Shown here: positions 26,386-41,266 of the stretch, piece by piece
Numbering within the stretch: position 1 is the first letter of the stretch
Layout: every line of letters begins with the position of its first letter
Source of the DNA: a virus
Taxonomy: Duplodnaviria; Heunggongvirae; Uroviricota; Caudoviricetes
Reading direction: 5' to 3' (one strand)
Virus record (IMG/VR): IMGVR_UViG_2861079508_000001
DNA: 64,000 bases
Translations under genes and position numbers: made by a program
The notes under the pieces: generated by a model
Databases searched by the model: none
Told to the model about the DNA's origin: nothing
Seen by the model: the letters and a program-made list of their open reading frames with translations, nothing else

Positions 26386-27083
26386 TACATACGCTCCTTG
26401 TAGTAGTCGACCAGCCACACCAGAGCCTCACCAGCGTTCTCCATTTCATTACCGGTGTTAATAGCCTGCTCTTTGATGATGTTTTTTATGGTTTCTGCAA
26501 CACGATCTGACGCATCGAAAGTTACTTTGAAGCGCATGGTCTGATGTTCCGCACCCACACGTTCGGTTTTCTCTCGTTTGTCGGTATCGACAGGCTCATC
26601 ACTACCACGAGACAACGCCTCCAGTGCTTCAAGGTCGATTGCCGCCTCTTTTGCTAAAACCATCGAGATTTCGTCGTCATACGGGGCGATTTCAGACAGT
26701 TGATAGTCAAGTTCTGACTGAATTTCTTCAATGAAGCGTTGCAATGCGATTTGGTCGTCTTCACCGTATCGCTCGTTGTCCACCAGTGACATCTGTTTAG
26801 CTACGACATCGCTAATTTTGCCCACAGAAAGCACCGGAACCGTTGAAATTCCTTGCTCAATAGCAGCACGCCAGCGATGTTCGCCGCCGAGGATTTCAAA
26901 AAATCCATCTTCAAGTTCACGAGCCAAAATTGGCTTAAAAAAGCCCAATTTTTCGATAGAACCTTTCAGTTTTTCAAAATTCTGCGCACCAACCGAATTG
27001 GTGTTCCAGGTATTCGGGCGAAGGTTGGCAACATCAACCTGCAAAATCGTGATTTTTACATCCATTTTATTGCTACAATACAC
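26385..27083 (-). CDS. ParB-like N-terminal domain protein 2
   Basis: ParB/Srx motif LGGEHRWRAA. Confidence 0.6.
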   Translation of the reverse strand: MYCSNKMDVKITILQVDVANLRPNTWNTNSVGAQNFEKLKGSIEKLGFFKPILARELEDGFFEILGGEHRWRAAIEQGISTVPVLSVGKISDVVAKQMSLVDNERYGEDDQIALQRFIEEIQSELDYQLSEIAPYDDEISMVLAKEAAIDLEALEALSRGSDEPVDTDKREKTERVGAEHQTMRFKVTFDASDRVAETIKNIIKEQAINTGNEMENAGEALVWLVDYYKERM

Positions 27084-27087
27084 TAAG

Positions 27088-27112
27088 TAACCACTTACTT
27101 ATTATAATAGCC
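27088..27112. promoter_or_regulatory. palindromic motif TAAGTA-N-TACTTA in divergent promoter region
   Basis: CTAAGTAACCACTTACTTATTATAAT between ParB-like gene and helicase gene. Confidence 0.4.
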
Positions 27113-27147
27113 AAATAACATACAAAAGGCACTAAGGAAAGAGGTTT

Positions 27148-28707
27148 ATGACTGTTCGGATTGTATCTAACGCAGTAAATGCGCTTATTTCTGGCGCAGA
27201 TGACAAGGTAAAGCAACTGGTGCAGCAAATGTTGAGCTACGAAGTCGAGACTGGCGACTGGAAGGGCACAAGCACGATGTTCAACTGGAGTAAAAACTCG
27301 TTCCCTGCTGGCTTTGCCAAGCCTGTAGCGGCGAACTTGAACAAGGCGGGCATCAAATGTGTTCATATCCGCAAAGACAAAGCCCCGGCGCTTGGTAAAC
27401 CAAATCCGGCGGTTAACCCATTCCCATACAATCCTGATTATGCGTATCAGGATCAGACTGTGGAAACACTGGTTCGAGAGGGAATGATGATTGCGCAGAT
27501 CGCTACTGGTGGCGGGAAATCTAACGTTGCCTGCAAAGCAGCTGCACGTATCGGTCGAATGACATTATTTTTAACAACCCGCTCTGTTCTGATGTTTCAA
27601 ATGGCCGAAAACTTCCAGAGATCCATCGACTACCGCGCCGAAAATGGCGAACCGTGGTTAAAAGACCAAAAGGTTGGAGTCATTGGCTCGGGTGAGTTCC
27701 AGGTATCACGACATATCAACGTCGCTACAGTTCAAACTCTTGCAAGTTTCCTCGAAGAACCACCACGCGATGCAACACCAGATAAGAAAAGCTACCACCT
27801 CAAACGTCGGGAGTTGGTGAAACGCTTCCTTTCAAGTGTCTCTCTTCTTATTCTGGAAGAGGCGCATGAGTCTTCAGGCTCAAATTTCTATGACATCGCC
27901 AGATTATGTGTGAACGCAGACTATCGTCTGGCGCTTACAGCCACGCCGTTCATGAAGGATTCGACGGAAGCCAACATGCGCCTGATGGCGGTGGCCGGGC
28001 GAATTGAAATTAAAGTCACAGAAAAGTACCTGATTGATCGAGGCATTCTGGCAAAGCCGTACTTCCTTTATCATAAAGTTGCCTACAAGCCAGACGAGGC
28101 CAGAATCAAGGCCGAACTTGCCAACAAACACCTCAATTTTAGAGTTGGTATGAGCACCGCCTACCAAAAGGCTTATCAGTTGGGGATCGTGTATAATTTG
28201 GGACGTAACGAGGCCATTGTTCGCGAAGCATTGCTCTATAAGCAACATTCTCTCAATTGTATGACTCTGGTTCGTCTTAAACGCCACGGGCAAATCCTGA
28301 TGGAAATGATGAAAGAGTCCGGCCTTAGAGTTGACTTCATCTATGGGGAATCTAACCAGGCGACAAGGCAAGCAAAGCTGAACAGTTTAGCGTCTGGAGA
28401 AATAGATGTTTTAATAGGCTCGACTATTCTGGATGTCGGTGTTGATGTGCCAAGCGTTGGTGCGGTCATTCTTGCTGGTGGTGGGAAAGCAGAAGTTGAA
28501 ATGAGGCAGCGTGTCGGTCGTGGCTTACGAGCCAAAAAAAATCAGGCAAACGTGTGTTTTATCACTGATTTCATTGACATTAGCAACAAATACCTGTTGT
28601 CTCACTCTTATGAGCGAAAACACATCATCGACACCACACCTGGCTTTGCAGAAGGTGTATTGCCTATTGATGGAGCATTCGATTTTGGAGTTCTGAAACG
28701 AGATTAG
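27148..28707 (+). CDS. SF2 DEAH-box helicase
   Basis: Walker A TGGGKS, DEAH-like LEEAHE, motif III LTATP, motif VI QRVGRGLR. Confidence 0.75.
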   Translation: MTVRIVSNAVNALISGADDKVKQLVQQMLSYEVETGDWKGTSTMFNWSKNSFPAGFAKPVAANLNKAGIKCVHIRKDKAPALGKPNPAVNPFPYNPDYAYQDQTVETLVREGMMIAQIATGGGKSNVACKAAARIGRMTLFLTTRSVLMFQMAENFQRSIDYRAENGEPWLKDQKVGVIGSGEFQVSRHINVATVQTLASFLEEPPRDATPDKKSYHLKRRELVKRFLSSVSLLILEEAHESSGSNFYDIARLCVNADYRLALTATPFMKDSTEANMRLMAVAGRIEIKVTEKYLIDRGILAKPYFLYHKVAYKPDEARIKAELANKHLNFRVGMSTAYQKAYQLGIVYNLGRNEAIVREALLYKQHSLNCMTLVRLKRHGQILMEMMKESGLRVDFIYGESNQATRQAKLNSLASGEIDVLIGSTILDVGVDVPSVGAVILAGGGKAEVEMRQRVGRGLRAKKNQANVCFITDFIDISNKYLLSHSYERKHIIDTTPGFAEGVLPIDGAFDFGVLKRD

Positions 28708-28709
28708 TT

Positions 28710-28988
28710 ATGAGCGAAAAGAAAACAACTTATTGTCAGGTAGCATTGTCTGATAAGGCCAATGACAAACTTGGAAAGTTTCAAGTGAAACTAAAAGAAA
28801 AAAATATCAAAATGTCTAAGGCTGAAGTCATAAATACCATTCTGGAACAATTGACAATGGCCGACTTTGACAAGGTTATATCTTCTGTCGGGGCTTCCGC
28901 TAAGACTCGTGAGAAAATCATGCGTATCTATGAGAACTCTAATATGACAAAGGAAGATCTCGAAACGCTATTAAGCAGATTAAAATAA
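28710..28988 (+). CDS. hypothetical protein
   Basis: 92 aa ORF, translationally coupled to helicase. Confidence 0.4.
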   Translation: MSEKKTTYCQVALSDKANDKLGKFQVKLKEKNIKMSKAEVINTILEQLTMADFDKVISSVGASAKTREKIMRIYENSNMTKEDLETLLSRLK

Positions 28989-29014
28989 TCACGCTATCAA
29001 TTAGGGAGACAAAG

Positions 29015-29479
29015 ATGAAGTCTCCCATACTGTTCACTTTCTGTTCTAAAACTATCATGAAATACTCGCTTCTCCCTCTACTAACGTTACCAGTGTTGAT
29101 GCTTACCGCGTGCCAATCACGCCCAATATCAATCCATGACGCCAAACCAGCACCGCAGGCCAAAGTGTTCAAGTATCAAAGCGCAGCGCCAGCTACGTTG
29201 GTGGTAATGAGAGACACAGGTTTTGTAGGAGCTGGATGTGATGCTTCCATTTTCATCAACGGCGAAACTGTCGCAAAACTGGCTACAGGCGAAAAAGCGA
29301 CTTTCCATTTAAATGCCGGAGAATTAATTGTGGGTGCATCTCTTGAAGGTGCAGGTTTATGTGCTCTAAACCCCGCTCGTCAAGAGCGAGAAACGACTCT
29401 GAAGAATGGAGACACAAAAGCGTTCAGGGTGTTCACCAGCAATTCTGGTGACATCGACATTCTGCCAACAACTCTGTGA
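29015..29479 (+). CDS. lipoprotein (candidate superinfection exclusion protein)
   Basis: Signal peptide with lipobox LTAC; start may be internal Met (MKYSLL). Confidence 0.5.
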   Translation: MKSPILFTFCSKTIMKYSLLPLLTLPVLMLTACQSRPISIHDAKPAPQAKVFKYQSAAPATLVVMRDTGFVGAGCDASIFINGETVAKLATGEKATFHLNAGELIVGASLEGAGLCALNPARQERETTLKNGDTKAFRVFTSNSGDIDILPTTL

Positions 29480-29483
29480 TGAC

Positions 29484-30008
29484 ATGACAACCAAAGATAT
29501 TACCTACGGTATCCAAGCTGAACTCTGGCCGCGAGATTACACTAACGTTGAAAAACTACTGATGTTCTGGCGCAGAGAACAAATTCCTGTAAGGGTCACT
29601 CTCGAAGATGGCCAGGCGTTTTGCATGTACGTTTATGGCCTCATGCCATCTCGTAACAAAGTTGACCTTTGCCCAGCCCCTTTTGACAAAGAAAATCGTA
29701 TAAGGCTCCCACTTGAACGCATTAGTACAATTGAATCAGGTGTGGTTGACAGTATCGCTCACGATTTCAAAGGTCGACTAACAGTTCACCCTGATTATGT
29801 CGATAATCGGCCATCACGCCGCGATTTTTTTGCAATTTGCAACCAAGCCTACAAAGCAAACAAATCTATAAGGGTGTACATGGCGGATGGCCGTGAAATT
29901 GAGGGGGTGTCAGCAGGCGCAGATGCTTGTCAGGTTACACTACGTGTCGAGAACGGTAGAAAAATAGTTGTTTTGTTCGATTGGGTTGAACGAATTTTGC
30001 CTTTTTGA
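29484..30008 (+). CDS. hypothetical protein
   Basis: ORF 29406-30008 trimmed to first non-overlapping ATG (MTTKDITYG). Confidence 0.4.
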   Translation: MTTKDITYGIQAELWPRDYTNVEKLLMFWRREQIPVRVTLEDGQAFCMYVYGLMPSRNKVDLCPAPFDKENRIRLPLERISTIESGVVDSIAHDFKGRLTVHPDYVDNRPSRRDFFAICNQAYKANKSIRVYMADGREIEGVSAGADACQVTLRVENGRKIVVLFDWVERILPF

Positions 30009-30011
30009 GTT

Positions 30012-30320
30012 ATGAAATCGATATTGTTACCACCATTATTTTTACTTTGCTCAGTTACGGCAAATGCAATGGACTATAAGCCTGTCATTCAGTCGCTGAT
30101 GAATGACGTGTGCTCAACGTCTCAGAATGTATCAGTTTGCATGTATCAATTTTCGGCAGCCGTAAAAGCAGGAAAAGCGATAGGTGAGAATGTGGAACTG
30201 TGTAAGAAAGTGGCAAATGAAGAAAGGGCAATGTTGGATTGCGAATCTAGCGAGTCATCGGCACAGTTCGTTGATGCGCTATTTGACACCAATCGTAAGG
30301 CTGTAGAGTCTGTTCAATAA
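30012..30320 (+). CDS. secreted Cys-containing small protein
   Basis: N-terminal signal peptide ending ANA; 6 Cys. Confidence 0.45.
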   Translation: MKSILLPPLFLLCSVTANAMDYKPVIQSLMNDVCSTSQNVSVCMYQFSAAVKAGKAIGENVELCKKVANEERAMLDCESSESSAQFVDALFDTNRKAVESVQ

Positions 30321-30333
30321 ATCTATAAGGTTA

Positions 30334-30362
30334 ATAACCGGCTAAGTCCGGTTATTATTTTT
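30334..30362 (+). terminator. intrinsic terminator
   Basis: Hairpin ATAACCGG-CTAAGT-CCGGTTAT followed by T-run. Confidence 0.6.
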
Positions 30363-30509
30363 CACATCACTTCTTTATATCTACAAATCAAATAACCTAA
30401 ATATATATAAGGTCTAAAGCCGCAATCGATTATTTATTTAGGGAACACCTTCGACGATCTCGCTTTTATTTCTAGGACTTTCATCCCTGCAAAAAATTTT
30501 AAAAAACAC

Positions 30510-30538
30510 TTGCAATCTATTTTCGCGTATCGATAATT
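30510..30538 (+). promoter_or_regulatory. sigma70-like promoter (TTGCAA - 17 bp - GATAAT)
   Basis: Hexamers and spacing read from sequence, about 65 bp upstream of the 30603 ORF. Confidence 0.5.
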
Positions 30539-30602
30539 GAGCTCGTCGAAAGCGAAGACGCTAACGACAATAAATTTTAAATTTACATAAGGAAAAATTA
30601 TC

Positions 30603-31253
30603 ATGGCTAACATTATCATTTCTAAAAAATCCATCATTGAAGCTGCTTCCATTGTATCCGATGAACTGCGCGAAAAAGCAGATCTGGCAACTCAAACATA
30701 TAACGAACATTATAAAAATGGTACGCACACTAAAGCAGACAAAGCAAATATGCAAGCTGCGACCACTAAACTTGCTTACTTCATCAACAACGTCGTAAAC
30801 GCAGTAGAAGACGAAAAATTATGCTCTGTTTTCTACTATGCGATTAAAGCAAGCAAACAAGCGCCAGAAGTATTTTTCCGTGATGCAATGACTAATAGTT
30901 ATTCTCTGGAAAAACTGGTTTATCTGGTTAAATCAATTAAATCTGGTAAATGCGTTTATTCCATCGCTGATATGTCAGGATCTCGTGTATTCGCTTTAAT
31001 CGATATGATTAACGACGAGATCGACACGTTCACCAATGGCGCTGTTTTCGATTTAATGAATGAAGCTAAAAAAGCGTGCGAAATTAAATTGGACGCTGGC
31101 TATACTCAAGCCAACCAGTTGATCAATCTTTGCGAACGTCTTGGACTTGTTGAGAAAGTCAAAGGAATGGGAAGCGCAAAAGCTGGTACACAGCAATATC
31201 GCTTTATCAAGAATGATTTCTACAATTATTTAGCTGATGCTTTTAAAGCGTAA
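30603..31253 (+). CDS. hypothetical protein, AT-rich codon usage
   Basis: 216 aa ORF with RBS; composition differs from flanking phage genes. Confidence 0.5.
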   Translation: MANIIISKKSIIEAASIVSDELREKADLATQTYNEHYKNGTHTKADKANMQAATTKLAYFINNVVNAVEDEKLCSVFYYAIKASKQAPEVFFRDAMTNSYSLEKLVYLVKSIKSGKCVYSIADMSGSRVFALIDMINDEIDTFTNGAVFDLMNEAKKACEIKLDAGYTQANQLINLCERLGLVEKVKGMGSAKAGTQQYRFIKNDFYNYLADAFKA

Positions 31254-31265
31254 TTAATGGAATCA

Positions 31266-31283
31266 AGCGCCCACTATGGGCGC
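31266..31283 (+). terminator. hairpin AGCGCCCACTATGGGCGCT (copy 1, weak T-run)
   Basis: Inverted repeat; identical hairpin recurs at 31764-31782. Confidence 0.35.
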
Positions 31284-31303
31284 TTTAAAGGAGCTTTAAA
31301 AAA

Positions 31304-31507
31304 ATGGTCAGCTATGACAAGATCCGCGCAAAGTATCGCGCAAAGTATCGCGCTTATAAACTGGAATTAATCGATGATTTGATCGCGCAACGCGACCAAT
31401 TAAATTTTACGTTTTCTGATTTGCTTAACAGCAAGCGAGATTGCAAGCGCAAACGTGAATACTTACGTTTAAGCGCATTAATCGGAAAACTTCAAAATTC
31501 TATTTAA
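31304..31507 (+). CDS. hypothetical small protein (low-complexity N-terminus)
   Basis: 67 aa ORF containing a 12-bp tandem repeat. Confidence 0.3.
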   Translation: MVSYDKIRAKYRAKYRAYKLELIDDLIAQRDQLNFTFSDLLNSKRDCKRKREYLRLSALIGKLQNSI

Positions 31508-31528
31508 TTTTTTTTAAGGAGCTTAATC

Positions 31529-31759
31529 ATGTTTGTTCTTATCGCTGGCGTTAACGTCCATAATGAATATTATGTTAATCGCATCGCTGGGATCGCTGGT
31601 TACGCTGGGCGCGCAGTCGAGCTTATAGATGAAACGACGCGCAAAATTGACTTATTGAGCGACCAGGAGCGAAAAAAAGCAGACGTGAACGACGCTGATA
31701 TATTTTTAATGTTAAAAGCGTTTGTAGAAATGGGATTTAAAATCAGTTTACACAAATAA
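31529..31759 (+). CDS. hypothetical small protein
   Basis: 76 aa ORF with RBS AAGGAG. Confidence 0.35.
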   Translation: MFVLIAGVNVHNEYYVNRIAGIAGYAGRAVELIDETTRKIDLLSDQERKKADVNDADIFLMLKAFVEMGFKISLHK

Positions 31760-31763
31760 AATC

Positions 31764-31789
31764 GAGCGCCCACTATGGGCGCTTTTTTT
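31764..31789 (+). terminator. intrinsic terminator (hairpin AGCGCCCACTATGGGCGCT plus T7 run)
   Basis: hairpin followed by TTTTTTT. Confidence 0.65.
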
Positions 31790-31810
31790 CGTTTCCAATA
31801 CACCTACCAT

Positions 31811-31838
31811 AACGCGCCATCATTGGCGCGTTTTTATT
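31811..31838 (+). terminator. intrinsic terminator (AACGCGCCA-TCAT-TGGCGCGTT plus T-run)
   Basis: hairpin and T-run read from sequence. Confidence 0.55.
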
Positions 31839-32244
31839 GTCTTTAACTCACTCCAACAACATAAAAATAAGCGCCAAAATAACGCCATAGACGCGCTTTT
31901 ATATCCTTACCAGTACATGCCCATTACTTAACACATTAACGCGCTTAAAACGCATTATATTGCGCTATAGAGTATGGTTAATCATTGGCTTTTAGTCTTG
32001 CTATGTGATCCGCGTTTATTTGTCGGTGCGGATCGGCATTTTGTTTTGTTCTGTATCCGCTCGCGTATTATGTGCGCGTAATTTTTCACATAATCACACC
32101 ACTTAATCACGTATGTGATTATGCTACGAAAGAAATCTGGATGTCTCAGGCGACGAAAGTCATCATAATTTCCCCCGCTCACCTGTCCGACAACCGCTGG
32201 TTGGATTCCACCAGCTTCCCGATGTTTTTTCTACACAAAGGCGA

Positions 32245-32340
32245 ATGCAGCCGTTTCCCGAAAAAATCCTGGCCGTTCCCCGTCGGCTCATGAATACGTT
32301 CCTCGCCGTTTCTGAAAATTTCCCTGCGGCAGCTGGTGGC
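32245..32340. repeat. array of GCCGTTTCC(C/T)GAAAA-like repeats ending at a Chi octamer
   Basis: Three degenerate copies plus GCTGGTGG at about 32332-32339; related array at 35380-35520. Confidence 0.5.
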
Positions 32341-32375
32341 TATAGAGAAAGGGCCGTTTCTGGCCCTCTTCTCAG

Positions 32376-32858
32376 TTACACGCCATCAAGGATGTGGATG
32401 CGGTTGCTTGCGTATACATTCAGCATAAAGTTAGCGCAAAACAGTTTCCATGTATCAACGCCAGCGGTATACGTAATGTTTTTGCATTTAATTGCATTGT
32501 TGGCGATCCGCATCCCCTGCGATACTGCTTCATCGTCGGAAAATTTGAACGACGATTGAGTTTTAATCCAGACAGAAATCTGCGTAGCGAACTCAATCAG
32601 CTTGGACTGGCAGAATCGCCCGGAGCGCACCGGAAGGACGAACGTTCCGAATCCAGAATTTACCACATATGCTTTCTCAAATACCCGCGAGTAACGACGA
32701 TTGCCAATGATGTCGCGTGCAATAATGCATTTTTCTTGTGCTGACAGTTCTACCGTCTCATTGTCGCGCCATGCACCAAGTACTCGTTTTTCAATGTCAG
32801 AGAACGTTACAGCGATATTGCCATGTGCGGGTGCGTTTACAGTAGCGATAAAATTCAT
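32376..32858 (-). CDS. hypothetical protein
   Basis: 160 aa ORF preceded by promoter and motif. Confidence 0.5.
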   Translation of the reverse strand: MNFIATVNAPAHGNIAVTFSDIEKRVLGAWRDNETVELSAQEKCIIARDIIGNRRYSRVFEKAYVVNSGFGTFVLPVRSGRFCQSKLIEFATQISVWIKTQSSFKFSDDEAVSQGMRIANNAIKCKNITYTAGVDTWKLFCANFMLNVYASNRIHILDGV

Positions 32859-37676: not shown

Positions 37677-39710
37677 TTACTTAACCTGGTGGCCAGGTTT
37701 AGCACCAGCATCCGGGCTTAACAGGAAGATATCTTTCCCGCCGGGGCCAGCAGCCATCACCATGCCTTCAGAGATACCGAAGCGCATTTTACGTGGTGCC
37801 AGGTTAGCCACCATAATGGTGTGACGACCAATCAGTGCCTGTGGATCTGGATAAGCGGAACGGATGCCTGAGAAGACATTACGCTTTTCACCACCGAGAT
37901 CCAGCGTCAGGCGAAGCAGTTTGTCAGAACCTTCTACAAACTCTGCGTTTTCAATCAGCGCCACGCGCAGGTCAACTTTGGCGAAGTCGTCAAAGGTGAT
38001 AGTTTCCTGAATCGGGTCGTCAGCCAGTGGGCCAGTTACCGGTGCGGCTGTGGCTTTCACTTCTTCTTTGGATGCTTCCACCAGTGCTTCAACCTGCTTC
38101 ATATCGATGCGGTTATACAGTGCCTTGAACGGATTCACTTTATGGCCCAGCAGCGGTTGCTGGATACCATCCCAGGTCAGTTCTGTATTCAGGAATGCTT
38201 CTGCACGTTCAGTCAGTTTCGGCAGTACCGGTTTCAGGTACGTCATCAGCACGCGGAACAGGTTAATGCCCATAGAGCAAATCGCCTGCAGATCGGCATC
38301 GCGTCCTTCCTGCTTTGCCACCACCCACGGAGCCTGTTCATCAACATAGCGGTTAGCCAGGTCAGCCAGTGCCATGATTTCACGGATAGCTTTGCCAAAT
38401 TCGCGGCTTTCCCATGCTTCGCCAATCACTTCAGCGGCATCAGTAAAGGTTTTGTACAGTTGCGGGTCAGCCAGTTCGCTTGCCAGCACGCCGTCAAAAC
38501 GCTTGTTGATAAAGCCTGCATTACGGGAGGCCAGGTTAACCACTTTGTTAACGATATCGGCATTCACACGCTGAACGAAATCTTCCAGGTTGAGATCGAT
38601 ATCATCAATGCGCGAAGAGAGTTTCGCAGTGTAGTAGTAACGCAGGCTGTCGGCGTCAAAATGATTCAGCCAGGTGCTGGCTTTAATAAAGGTGCCGCGA
38701 GACTTGGACATCTTCGCGCCGTTCACCGTCACATAGCCGTGAACAAACAGGTTGGTCGGCTTGCGGAAGTTGCTGCCTTCCAGCATGGCAGGCCAGAACA
38801 GGCTGTGGAAGTAAACGATATCTTTGCCGATGAAGTGGTACAGCTCGGCGGTGGAGTCTTTCTTCCAGTATTCGTCGAAGCTGGTAGTGTCGCCGCGTTT
38901 GTCGCACAGATTCTTGAAGGAACCCATGTAGCCAATCGGCGCGTCCAGCCAGACGTAGAAGTATTTGCCCGGTGCGTTCGGAATTTCAAAACCGAAGTAA
39001 GGTGCGTCACGGGAGATATCCCACTGTTGCAGGCCAGATTCAAACCACTCCTGCATTTTGTTTGCCACCTGCTCCTGCAACGCACCGCTGCGGGTCCATG
39101 CCTGCAACATTTCGCTGAAAGAAGGCAGATCAAAGAAGAAGTGTTCGGAATCACGCATTACCGGTGTAGCGCCAGAAACCACTGATTTCGGCTCGATCAG
39201 TTCCGTCGGGCTGTATGTCGCGCCGCAGACTTCACAGTTATCGCCGTATTGATCCGGCGCTTTACATTTCGGGCATGTGCCTTTTACAAAACGGTCCGGC
39301 AGGAACATGCCTTTTTCCGGGTCGTACAGCTGAGAGATGGTGCGGTTTTTAATAAAACCGTTCTCTTTCAGGCGAGTATAGATAAGCTCGGACAACTGAC
39401 GGTTCTCTTCGCTGTGCGTCGAGTGATAGTTGTCATAGCTGATGTTAAAGCCTGCGAAATCAGTCTGATGTTCCTGACTCATTTCGCCAATCATCTGTTC
39501 CGGTGTGATACCAAGCTGCTGTGCTTTCAGCATGATTGGCGTACCGTGGGCATCGTCGGCACAGATGAAATTAACCTCGTGGCCGCGCATTCGCTGGTAA
39601 CGAACCCAGACATCAGCCTGGATGTGCTCCAGCATATGGCCGAGGTGGATTGAGCCGTTAGCGTACGGCAGCGCGCACGTCACCAGAATTTTCTTCGCGA
39701 CTTGGGTCAT
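37677..39710 (-). CDS. metG: methionine--tRNA ligase (enterobacterial host-type)
   Basis: 677 aa from [25 protein letters not shown] (HIGH motif), KMSKS motif, C-terminal tRNA-binding domain; near-identical to Escherichia MetG by recall. Confidence 0.95.
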
Positions 39711-39867
39711 AGTAGGCATTACTTCTTTGTAGTGAAAAGGGGCTTGATAGTAACAAAATGGCCTTATGTCTGCCATGTGATAACAGCATTTCTCATAAAT
39801 GATTAAATGTCGTAGCTGGAGTACACTACAAGGCGACAATTGCGCAAATTAAAATAAAGGAGACGGG

Positions 39868-40968
39868 ATGAGCGAGTCCAAATCGCCGGATGCCCTGAGA
39901 GCAATGGTAGCCGGTACGCTGGCTAATTTTCAGCACCCAACCCTGAAACACAACCTGACTACGCTTAAAGCGTTACACCATGTTGCGTTGATGGATGACA
40001 CACTGCATGTCGAACTAATCATGCCTTTCGTGTGGAATAAGCCTTTTGAAGACCTGAAAGAGCAATGTAGTGGTGATCTGCTCCGTATCACTGGCGCAAA
40101 GGCTATTGACTGGAAGCTGTCGTACAACATTGCCACGCTTAAGCGCGTCAAAAACCAACCAGGCATTAATGGCGTTAAGAACATTATCGCCGTCAGCTCA
40201 GGCAAGGGCGGCGTGGGTAAATCCTCCACGGCGGTAAACCTGGCACTGGCGTTGGCTGCTGAAGGTGCGAAAGTTGGTATTTTGGATGCCGATATCTATG
40301 GTCCATCAATTCCAACCATGCTGGGCGCGGAAAACCAACGTCCAACCTCACCGGACGGTACTCACATGGCACCTATCATGTCTCATGGCCTGGCAACCAA
40401 CTCTATTGGTTATCTGGTCACCGACGACAATGCAATGGTGTGGCGTGGACCGATGGCCAGCAAGGCGCTGATGCAGATGTTGCAGGAAACACTGTGGCCT
40501 GATCTGGACTATCTCGTTCTCGATATGCCACCGGGCACTGGTGATATTCAATTGACGCTGGCGCAGAACATTCCTGTAACTGGTGCGGTTGTGGTAACTA
40601 CGCCGCAAGACATCGCGCTGATCGATGCGAAGAAAGGCATTGTGATGTTCGAAAAAGTCGAAGTGCCGGTACTGGGTATCGTTGAAAACATGAGTGTGCA
40701 TATTTGCAGTAACTGCGGTCATCACGAGCCAATTTTTGGCACCGGTGGCGCACAGAAACTGGCCGAGAAATACAACACGCAGTTGTTAGGCCAAATGCCA
40801 CTTCATATCTCTCTTCGTGAAGATCTGGATAACGGAACACCAACCGTTATTAGTCGTCCAGATAGTGAATTTACGGCTATTTATCGTGACCTCGCAGATC
40901 GCGTTGCTGCCCAAATGTATTGGCAAGGTGAAGTAATACCTGGCGAAATCGCATTCCGCGCAGTGTGA
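39868..40968 (+). CDS. apbC: Fe-S cluster carrier ATPase ApbC/Mrp
   Basis: Walker [11 protein letters not shown] and CxxC motif CSNCGH; divergent from metG as in enterobacterial chromosomes. Confidence 0.95.
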
Positions 40969-41266
40969 TAAAAAGGTGGTGCTTTTGCCGTTACGCACCA
41001 CCCCGTCAGTAGCTGAACAGGAGGGACAGCTGATAGAAACAGAAGCCACTGGAGCACCTCAAAAACACCATCATACACTAAATCAGTAAGTTGGCAGCAT
41101 CACCGAGCGCCAGCGGCGAACATATGAGCTTCGGAAATACTAGACATTCTTAACTCCGTTGTTTTCTAGTTGTGGTTATTTTCACAAATAAGAAAAGATA
41201 GAAAACAATTTATTTAAGGCCACAACTTATGGCCTTTATTTATTCATGCCGAAGGATTTGTAGCGT

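Follow-up and report, generated by a model that had tools for sequence, protein, structure and literature searches.

We analysed a small cluster of genes, all on the plus strand, within a 64,000-nucleotide stretch of a tailed-phage genome (IMG/VR record IMGVR_UViG_2861079508_000001, Caudoviricetes; the whole stretch is referred to below as the window), with emphasis on one gene whose product belongs to the family of the flagellin repressor FljA. As had been proposed from the letters of the DNA (the original prediction), four co-directional open reading frames follow a helicase gene here, encoding, in this order, a protein of 92 amino acids (aa; 28710–28988), a 154-aa lipoprotein (29015–29479), a 174-aa protein (29484–30008) and a 102-aa exported protein (30012–30320), and a strong intrinsic terminator (30332–30363) closes the cluster. 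The same prediction had left these proteins unassigned, which is incorrect for the 174-aa protein, and it passed over the conserved element of the cluster, a repressor of the FljA family. By its sequence, the 174-aa protein is a full-length member of the FljA family, and its gene is the most informative one of the four.

The best-supported account of the region is that it represents the distal part of the helicase operon, closed by a single intrinsic terminator. The first plus-strand gene of this operon encodes a DEAD/DEAH-box helicase (27148–28707), so annotated in identical plasmids, in Salmonella phage SSU5 and in phage Cyrano, and is preceded by an AGGA Shine-Dalgarno sequence; the intergenic gaps from this gene through the gene for the 102-aa protein measure 2, 26, 4, and 3 nucleotides (nt). 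As their starts are so close behind the preceding stop codons, the genes for the 92-aa, the 174-aa, and the 102-aa proteins appear to be translationally coupled to the helicase gene and to one another; among the four genes after the helicase, the one for the lipoprotein is alone in being preceded by its own Shine-Dalgarno sequence (GGAG, 7 nt before ATG 29015). The terminator, recognized by a terminator scan and by folding, consists of a hairpin (30332–30357) with a 10-bp stem (TAATAACCGG/CCGGTTATTA) and a 6-nt loop, followed by a T-run, and its folding energy of -12.6 kcal/mol (z = -4.1 versus shuffled sequences) was equalled by one of the 200 shuffles. A scan of positions 26900–32400 against Rfam returned no match.

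As to the family assignment, the 174-aa protein matches the Pfam profile PF03614 (Flag1_repress, FljA) with an E value of 1.5e-84 and 282.4 bits (cut-off 24), residues 5–171 aligning with profile positions 1–170 of 170, and it matches phrog_1444, described as a transcriptional repressor, with an E value of 2e-100. PF03614 and a length of about 175 aa are what it has in common with FljA of Salmonella enterica and with the relatives encoded on the linear plasmid pBSSB1 and in the phase-variation islets of E. coli. A chromosomal FljA of Atlantibacter (contig L010, 6004–6534), found by a scan of species genomes, served as the canonical comparator, because the Salmonella fljA was not retrieved by the scan of genome contigs with the FljA alignment, which relied on exact peptide patterns and recovered eight loci. 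The Atlantibacter gene directly follows a gene for a 498-aa flagellin, and this position corresponds to the canonical fljB-fljA arrangement. Overall, the two proteins are only 38–39% identical, but the N-terminal motif is 68% identical and the C-terminal Sm-like domain 50% identical, and the same terminal motifs are found in the window protein and in flagellin-linked FljA, DITYGxxAExWPRDY at the N-terminus and FDWVxRI near the C-terminus. These (residues 1–19 and 165–171, respectively) are also the most conserved parts of the family. In two divergent Klebsiella lineages (L016, L027, L028) WPRDY has been lost, and D[IF]TYGI and [FY]DWV[ED]RI have been kept. Closer relatives, 61–83% identical and encoded at the same locus, are SSU5_121, the pHCM2 homologue annotated as a repressor of fliC, and the pMT1 orthologue. 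The annotated start of SSU5_121, giving 148 aa, was rejected as placed too late, the conserved start MTNITDIT, 4 nt past the lipoprotein stop codon, giving a protein of 178 aa (L001, 4968–5504).

Structure prediction suggests that the 174-aa protein is built of two tandem Hfq-like Sm domains. In the model, the N-terminal helix followed by a five-stranded bent sheet that is characteristic of the Hfq/Sm fold is present and superposable on Hfq, the FDWVERI sequence falls at the Sm2 position of the second domain, and the N-terminal peptide DITYGxxAExWPRDY is predicted to be disordered, with predicted local distance difference test (pLDDT) values below 50. The similarity to Hfq in sequence is marginal, the match to the Pfam Hfq profile remaining below threshold (19.6 bits versus 27, E 7e-4), and there are several differences: Hfq has one Sm domain per chain and the window protein would have two, the Sm2 motif is YKHAI in Hfq and FDWVERI here, and the conserved N-terminal peptide has no counterpart in Hfq. 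A Foldseek search of BFVD returned only single-domain Sm-like phage proteins along with spurious long alignments, a sequence search of the PDB with the FljA family gave no meaningful match, and PADLOC gave no match for any of the four proteins encoded after the helicase. RNA binding by the 174-aa protein may be proposed at the level of the fold, and the tandem Sm architecture would fit the published mode of action of FljA. Canonical FljA prevents translation of the fliC mRNA, and motile E. coli loses its motility when it is given a plasmid with fljA(z66) (PMC2652032).

The element that carries this gene can be recognized from its closest relatives. The 4.5 kb around the locus are 99.9% identical to E. 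coli plasmids of 112–113 kb, typed as non-mobilizable; identity to Escherichia phage CMS-2020a is 98%, and that to SSU5 about 80%. Upstream of the locus, on the minus strand, lie genes for tail, tape-measure, capsid, portal, and terminase proteins, according to the annotation of the near-identical plasmid pSJC33-2, and these are followed by an ABC-ATPase gene, by two minus-strand ParB-N-domain genes, and then by the divergent plus-strand helicase operon. Based on the identity to both plasmids and phages and on this layout of virion, ParB, and helicase genes, we assign the element to the SSU5/pHCM2/pMT1-type phage-plasmids of E. coli.

Across these phage-plasmids, the FljA-like gene is distributed much like the helicase gene. 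Searches of PLSDB with tblastn, in which the helicase was counted at an identity of at least 60%, detected the FljA-like gene 830 times and the helicase about 823 times, in records that are clonally redundant and do not represent independent events. By genus, the respective numbers are 341 and 346 for Klebsiella, 228 and 228 for Escherichia, 92 and 92 for Enterobacter, 62 and 62 for Yersinia, 60 and 49 for Salmonella, 27 and 25 for Citrobacter, 10 and 10 for Cronobacter, and 6 and 7 for Shigella. As these counts are nearly equal, overall and for each genus, the gene belongs, on sequence evidence, to the core of SSU5-like phage-plasmids, and the only phage records in which it occurs are those of SSU5-like phages, bar two short partial matches on fragment records. 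Its surroundings are constant: ParB-like genes, the divergent helicase gene, the gene for the 92-aa protein, from zero to three variable genes, and the FljA-like gene are followed by a gene, not always present, for a secreted protein of some 100 aa, by the terminator, and by a phrog_1513 gene. This order holds in three Klebsiella lineages, on pMT1 of Yersinia pestis, in one Salmonella element, and in the phages SSU5 and Cyrano. The ratio of nonsynonymous to synonymous substitution rates (dN/dS) is 0.09–0.12 among the versions from E. coli, Klebsiella, Y. pestis, and SSU5, all seven of the Klebsiella-borne copies examined are intact, and the uncorrected ratios of nonsynonymous to synonymous differences (pN/pS) for pairs within Klebsiella are 0.11, 0.36, and 0.48. 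The gene is thus under purifying selection.

The interpretation that we favour, with moderate confidence, is that the locus encodes a post-transcriptional RNA-binding repressor of the FljA type, probably acting on the fliC mRNA of the host, along with independent cargo genes for envelope proteins. What the sequences and the model show is the family membership, the fold, the core or accessory status of the genes, the synteny, the purifying selection, the export signals, and the terminator. On this interpretation, the FljA-like protein, with its two Hfq-like Sm domains, would bind the leader of the target mRNA, block its translation and promote its decay. In an E. coli host the most probable target would be the fliC mRNA, given the family membership, the conserved motifs, and the activity of FljA proteins across species. 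Carriage or induction of the element would then lower flagellin synthesis, with consequences for motility, for the display of the H antigen, for cost, and for how susceptible the cell is to flagellotropic phages. The parts of this scheme that we infer are that the protein binds RNA, which RNA it targets, when the operon is expressed, and what the exported proteins may do. A comparable case is presented by TldR prophages, temperate phages with a dedicated regulator of host flagellin and with benefits other than phage exclusion (bioRxiv 10.1101/2025.07.22.666180). The likeness lies in a temperate element with a putative regulator of host flagellin, and the difference in that TldR is an RNA-guided transcriptional repressor accompanied by a phage flagellin gene, whereas here the regulator is an FljA-family protein, presumably acting post-transcriptionally, and no replacement flagellin is encoded.

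A number of observations weigh against fliC as the target. In the N-terminal Sm-like domain, identity to the canonical FljA of Atlantibacter falls to 24%. While canonical FljA genes follow a flagellin gene, the window gene lies at the end of a helicase operon with neither a flagellin gene nor an invertase gene nearby: no gene for flagellin was detected in the window by tblastn, whose best match (E 0.055) covered just a stretch of the variable domain, and in eight related elements the neighbours of the FljA-like gene are the helicase gene, the gene for a 92-aa or 116-aa protein, and small cargo genes, with no flagellin gene beside it. A search of the window for stretches resembling the fliC promoter or leader gave only chance-level matches of 9–12 nt, a weak test as the FljA binding motif is not known, and our literature searches found no functional study of an FljA from a phage-plasmid. 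Salmonella Typhi CT18 carries pHCM2, which encodes a homologue, and yet it expresses H:d flagella, suggesting either that there is no constitutive repression of fliC or that expression is conditional. Finally, unlike canonical FljA genes, genes of the window type are conserved in an intact form in elements from Klebsiella pneumoniae, Y. pestis, and Shigella, which are not known to make flagellin. This conservation in the elements of non-flagellate hosts argues that the fliC mRNA is not the sole target, and perhaps not the original one.

The last of these observations leads to what we consider the main rival explanation, that the FljA-like protein acts, as a core regulator at the post-transcriptional level, on the phage-plasmid itself (controlling, for example, a transcript of the phage or plasmid while the element is maintained or induced) or on some host mRNA besides fliC, repression of flagellin being absent or secondary. 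A primary target other than the flagellin mRNA would explain the purifying selection in the elements of Klebsiella (with seven of seven examined copies intact and pN/pS between 0.11 and 0.48) and of Y. pestis, as well as the presence of the gene in nearly every SSU5-like plasmid whatever the host, as in 341 of 346 cases for Klebsiella, 62 of 62 for Y. pestis, and 6 of 7 for Shigella, even if such numbers of plasmid records are inflated by clonal redundancy. The constant location of the gene in the distal part of the helicase operon, maintained even in a distant lineage (35% identity), the restriction of the gene, bar the two short partial fragment matches, to SSU5-like phage records, and the fact that the inspected copies never adjoin a flagellin gene also fit such a regulator. 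However, no candidate for another target has been found, and the strong conservation, in the main lineages, of the DITYG..AE.WPRDY motif and of the C-terminal Sm domain (50% identity) agrees with a target of a shared type. Most of the host genera, moreover, are flagellated (Escherichia, Salmonella, Enterobacter, Citrobacter, Cronobacter), and the loss of WPRDY in two divergent Klebsiella lineages could equally reflect relaxed targeting of fliC in those hosts. On balance, we regard this explanation as possible but tentative. The same degree of doubt applies to its evolutionary corollary, in which an ancient, core tandem-Sm regulator with a primary target other than flagellin mRNA would have given rise to FljA of Salmonella and E. 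coli, so that the fljA gene on the Salmonella chromosome would be a domesticated offshoot of the phage gene; an analogy for such domestication is provided by Hin, which is related to phage invertases.

For the two exported proteins, export signals were judged by hydropathy, motif rules, and conservation. The lipoprotein gene encodes a 154-aa precursor when read from ATG 29015, while most homologues start at the position of ATG 29057, giving 140 aa. The signal sequence ends in LPVLMLTAC, has a hydrophobic core with a Kyte-Doolittle value of 2.27, and conforms to the lipobox pattern [LVI][ASTVI][GAS]C. The Leu-Thr-Ala-Cys codons at 29102–29113, read from the sequence, bear out the LTAC lipobox that had been proposed, and none of the 35 relatives, which range down to about 30% identity, departs from the lipobox Cys, with L-x-[AG]-C in all of those aligned. 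The mature protein, of about 121 aa, would start at Cys33, and, as the residue at the +2 position is Gln rather than Asp, it is probably routed to the outer membrane by the default Lol rule.

Unlike the FljA-like gene product, the lipoprotein cannot be assigned to a family of described function. It matches phrog_890, annotated simply as a lipoprotein, with an E value of 9e-52, and its match to DUF2846 (PF11008) is below threshold (18.1 bits versus 34.3, over 48 residues), with weak matches to DUF2846 in 12 of the 35 distant relatives (best E 2e-5); judged by these matches, the family is distantly related to DUF2846 but separate from it. An exhaustive profile search places 1142 representative clusters in the lipoprotein family, almost all of about 135–150 aa; besides the invariant Cys of the lipobox, the family has an RD.G..G..C motif and another conserved Cys. 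Some of the homologues are chromosomal, as in Pseudomonas fulva, Pseudomonas parafulva, Citrobacter amalonaticus, and Ewingella. In C. amalonaticus the homologue (61% identity) has a PIN7-domain gene on one side and the fragments of a phage-type integrase gene on the other, in a small integrated islet (L017-L020, 4982–7873) that is inserted between cob/ldt genes and a MatE transporter gene. A search of PDB sequences with the lipoprotein family gave nothing meaningful, and the AlphaFold model, all-beta with a pLDDT of 48, is unreliable.

The 102-aa protein is, as had been suggested, a secreted one by prediction: its N-terminus reads MKSILLPPLFLLCSVTANA (Kyte-Doolittle value 2.25), with cleavage after A-N-A, so that the signal peptide corresponds to 30012–30068, and the mature part begins with MDYKP. 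In homologues of 64–88% identity the N-terminus is likewise hydrophobic and the conserved MDYKP is preceded by ANA, VSA, or ASA, with the residues of the signal themselves diverging. The start at 30069 used by the Prokaryotic Genome Annotation Pipeline (PGAP) and RefSeq, which removes the signal peptide and leaves an 83-aa hypothetical protein that would be cytoplasmic, was rejected in favour of 30012, because the character of a signal peptide is kept in the homologues while the residues change. The six cysteines attributed to the protein earlier were a miscount: it has five, one in the signal peptide and four in the 83-aa mature part, three of which are invariant, and we predict from sequence a small, Sec-exported periplasmic protein with four cysteines. 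The family (phrog_9536) is narrow, with 12 homologue clusters, all on phage-plasmid-like contigs, and with no relatives detected in Pfam, NCBIfam, or PDB; wherever the neighbourhood was inspected, the gene directly follows the FljA-like gene.

Both exported proteins show a patchy distribution. In PLSDB, the lipoprotein gene is found in 420 plasmids, as compared to about 823 with the helicase, and the gene for the 102-aa protein in 258. In pMT1 and in SSU5, where the lipoprotein is SSU5_122, the lipoprotein is present and the 102-aa protein absent; many Klebsiella elements have the secreted protein only, without the lipoprotein; and in other lineages unrelated small genes occupy the same slot. 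With counts this patchy, and with each gene occurring without the other, the two are, by this comparison of sequences, accessory cargo flanking the FljA-like gene. A separate observation concerns SSU5, in which a GC-rich hairpin followed by a T-run (L001, 4497–4522), absent from the window, is found between the genes for the 92-aa protein and the lipoprotein, hinting at a different transcriptional coupling.

One proposal for such cargo, and the one put forward in the original prediction, is exclusion: the lipoprotein, the secreted protein, or both would mask the phage's own receptor, in the manner of Llp of T5 and Cor of phi80 and N15, which mask the receptor FhuA. Like these, the lipoprotein is small, phage-encoded, provided with a lipobox, and carried by an element able to reside in the cell; the export signals of both proteins are genuine, phage cargo is typically found, as these accessory genes are, in a slot of a temperate element that varies between lineages, phage Cyrano has another membrane lipoprotein in this slot, and the C. 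amalonaticus homologue sits in an islet beside a degraded integrase gene. However, the window lipoprotein, at about 121 aa in its mature form, is larger than Llp and Cor and shows no detectable homology to them, and no similarity to exclusion or defence families was found for the exported proteins in Pfam, PHROGs, PADLOC, or PDB. For the lipoprotein, Pfam (E of 1 or less) returned only DUF2846 and PHROGs (E of 0.01 or less) only phrog_890, the presence of Llp or Cor models being unconfirmed for both of these libraries, and in a profile search of the PDB T5 Llp (8a60_B) was aligned only over signal-peptide residues 1–21, with an E value of 0.62. The known receptor-masking lipoproteins are narrow and phage-specific, whereas this family of 1142 clusters is broadly bacterial, with many chromosomal members (in Pseudomonas, for example), and one is kept on pMT1 of Y. 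pestis; the low-confidence model (pLDDT 48) offers no structural clue. The receptor of SSU5 is the core oligosaccharide of lipopolysaccharide (LPS; PMC4138488), and adsorption to the LPS core, and not to a protein, makes a protein-receptor block of the Llp/Cor style less obvious for the SSU5-type group. Thus, the anatomy of the cluster as originally described stands, and the Llp/Cor-type interpretation lacks positive support, given no homology, a broad family, and the LPS-core receptor of SSU5. The sequence comparisons place the lipoprotein outside the Llp and Cor families and neither support nor refute an exclusion role, which we consider improbable.

The other proposal is that both exported proteins are host-adaptation cargo, with roles in envelope stress, in colonisation, or in interactions with serum and immunity, and that they have nothing to do with adsorption. 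The wide distribution of the lipoprotein family and its conserved pair of cysteines, suggesting a folded periplasmic or outer-membrane domain, are compatible with this, as are the patchy presence on phage-plasmids and co-transcription with a probable flagellin repressor, which would likewise remodel the cell surface. On the other hand, neither family has a functional annotation, and neither informative neighbours nor structural clues were found; we hold this proposal to be rather unlikely as it stands, if less so than exclusion.

The remaining genes around the locus can be described briefly. The 92-aa protein matches phrog_1466 (E 5e-46) and received no assignment from Pfam, NCBIfam, or a sequence search of the PDB. 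Its gene occupies the same position in all seven main-lineage SSU5-type elements that were fully inspected, and by this comparison it is a core gene; in the divergent lineage L016/L027 a gene for a 116-aa protein is found there. It is AT-rich (36% GC versus 47% for the window), and the N-terminus of its product, by eye, has a strand-helix-helix pattern that may represent a ribbon-helix-helix motif, a candidate without database support. The helicase (27148–28707) shows a partial match, limited to the helicase core, to the PbeA models of PADLOC (E 7e-23), and with the divergent ParB-N-domain and ABC-type ATPase genes it may belong to a module for replication, recombination, or defence. Past the terminator, an AT-rich intergenic region of 282 nt (30321–30602) precedes the conserved phrog_1513 gene, and two sigma-70-like promoter matches (30510–30537 and 30576–30604) lie within it or at its end; judging from these matches, a new transcription unit probably starts ahead of the phrog_1513 gene. 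Further downstream, the annotation of pSJC33-2 points to a full-length metG, for methionine-tRNA ligase (37702–39735, minus strand), and an adjacent apbC/mrp (39893–40993, plus strand), a housekeeping pair of the chromosomal type aboard a phage-plasmid.

In conclusion, annotations as a putative flagellin repressor and as a lipoprotein exist already for SSU5 and pHCM2, and what appears not to have been discussed in the literature that we searched is that the FljA-like gene is a core gene, that it is conserved in the elements of non-flagellate hosts, and that its product is predicted to have a tandem Sm fold. Alone, the lipoprotein and the secreted protein would be ordinary cargo genes. The predicted tandem Hfq-like fold, in turn, offers a concrete structural hypothesis for RNA binding by FljA proteins. 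Were the target another RNA, this would be a new kind of phage-encoded post-transcriptional regulator, with a hint as to the origin of the phase-variation repressor of Salmonella. The SSU5/pHCM2/pMT1-type phage-plasmids are very common in clinical Enterobacteriaceae, the locus being present in about 800 complete plasmid records, and silencing of host flagellin by these elements, if true, would alter, in E. coli, Salmonella, and Enterobacter, the motility of the cells, their expression of the H antigen, their recognition by innate immunity, and how sensitive they are to flagellotropic phages.

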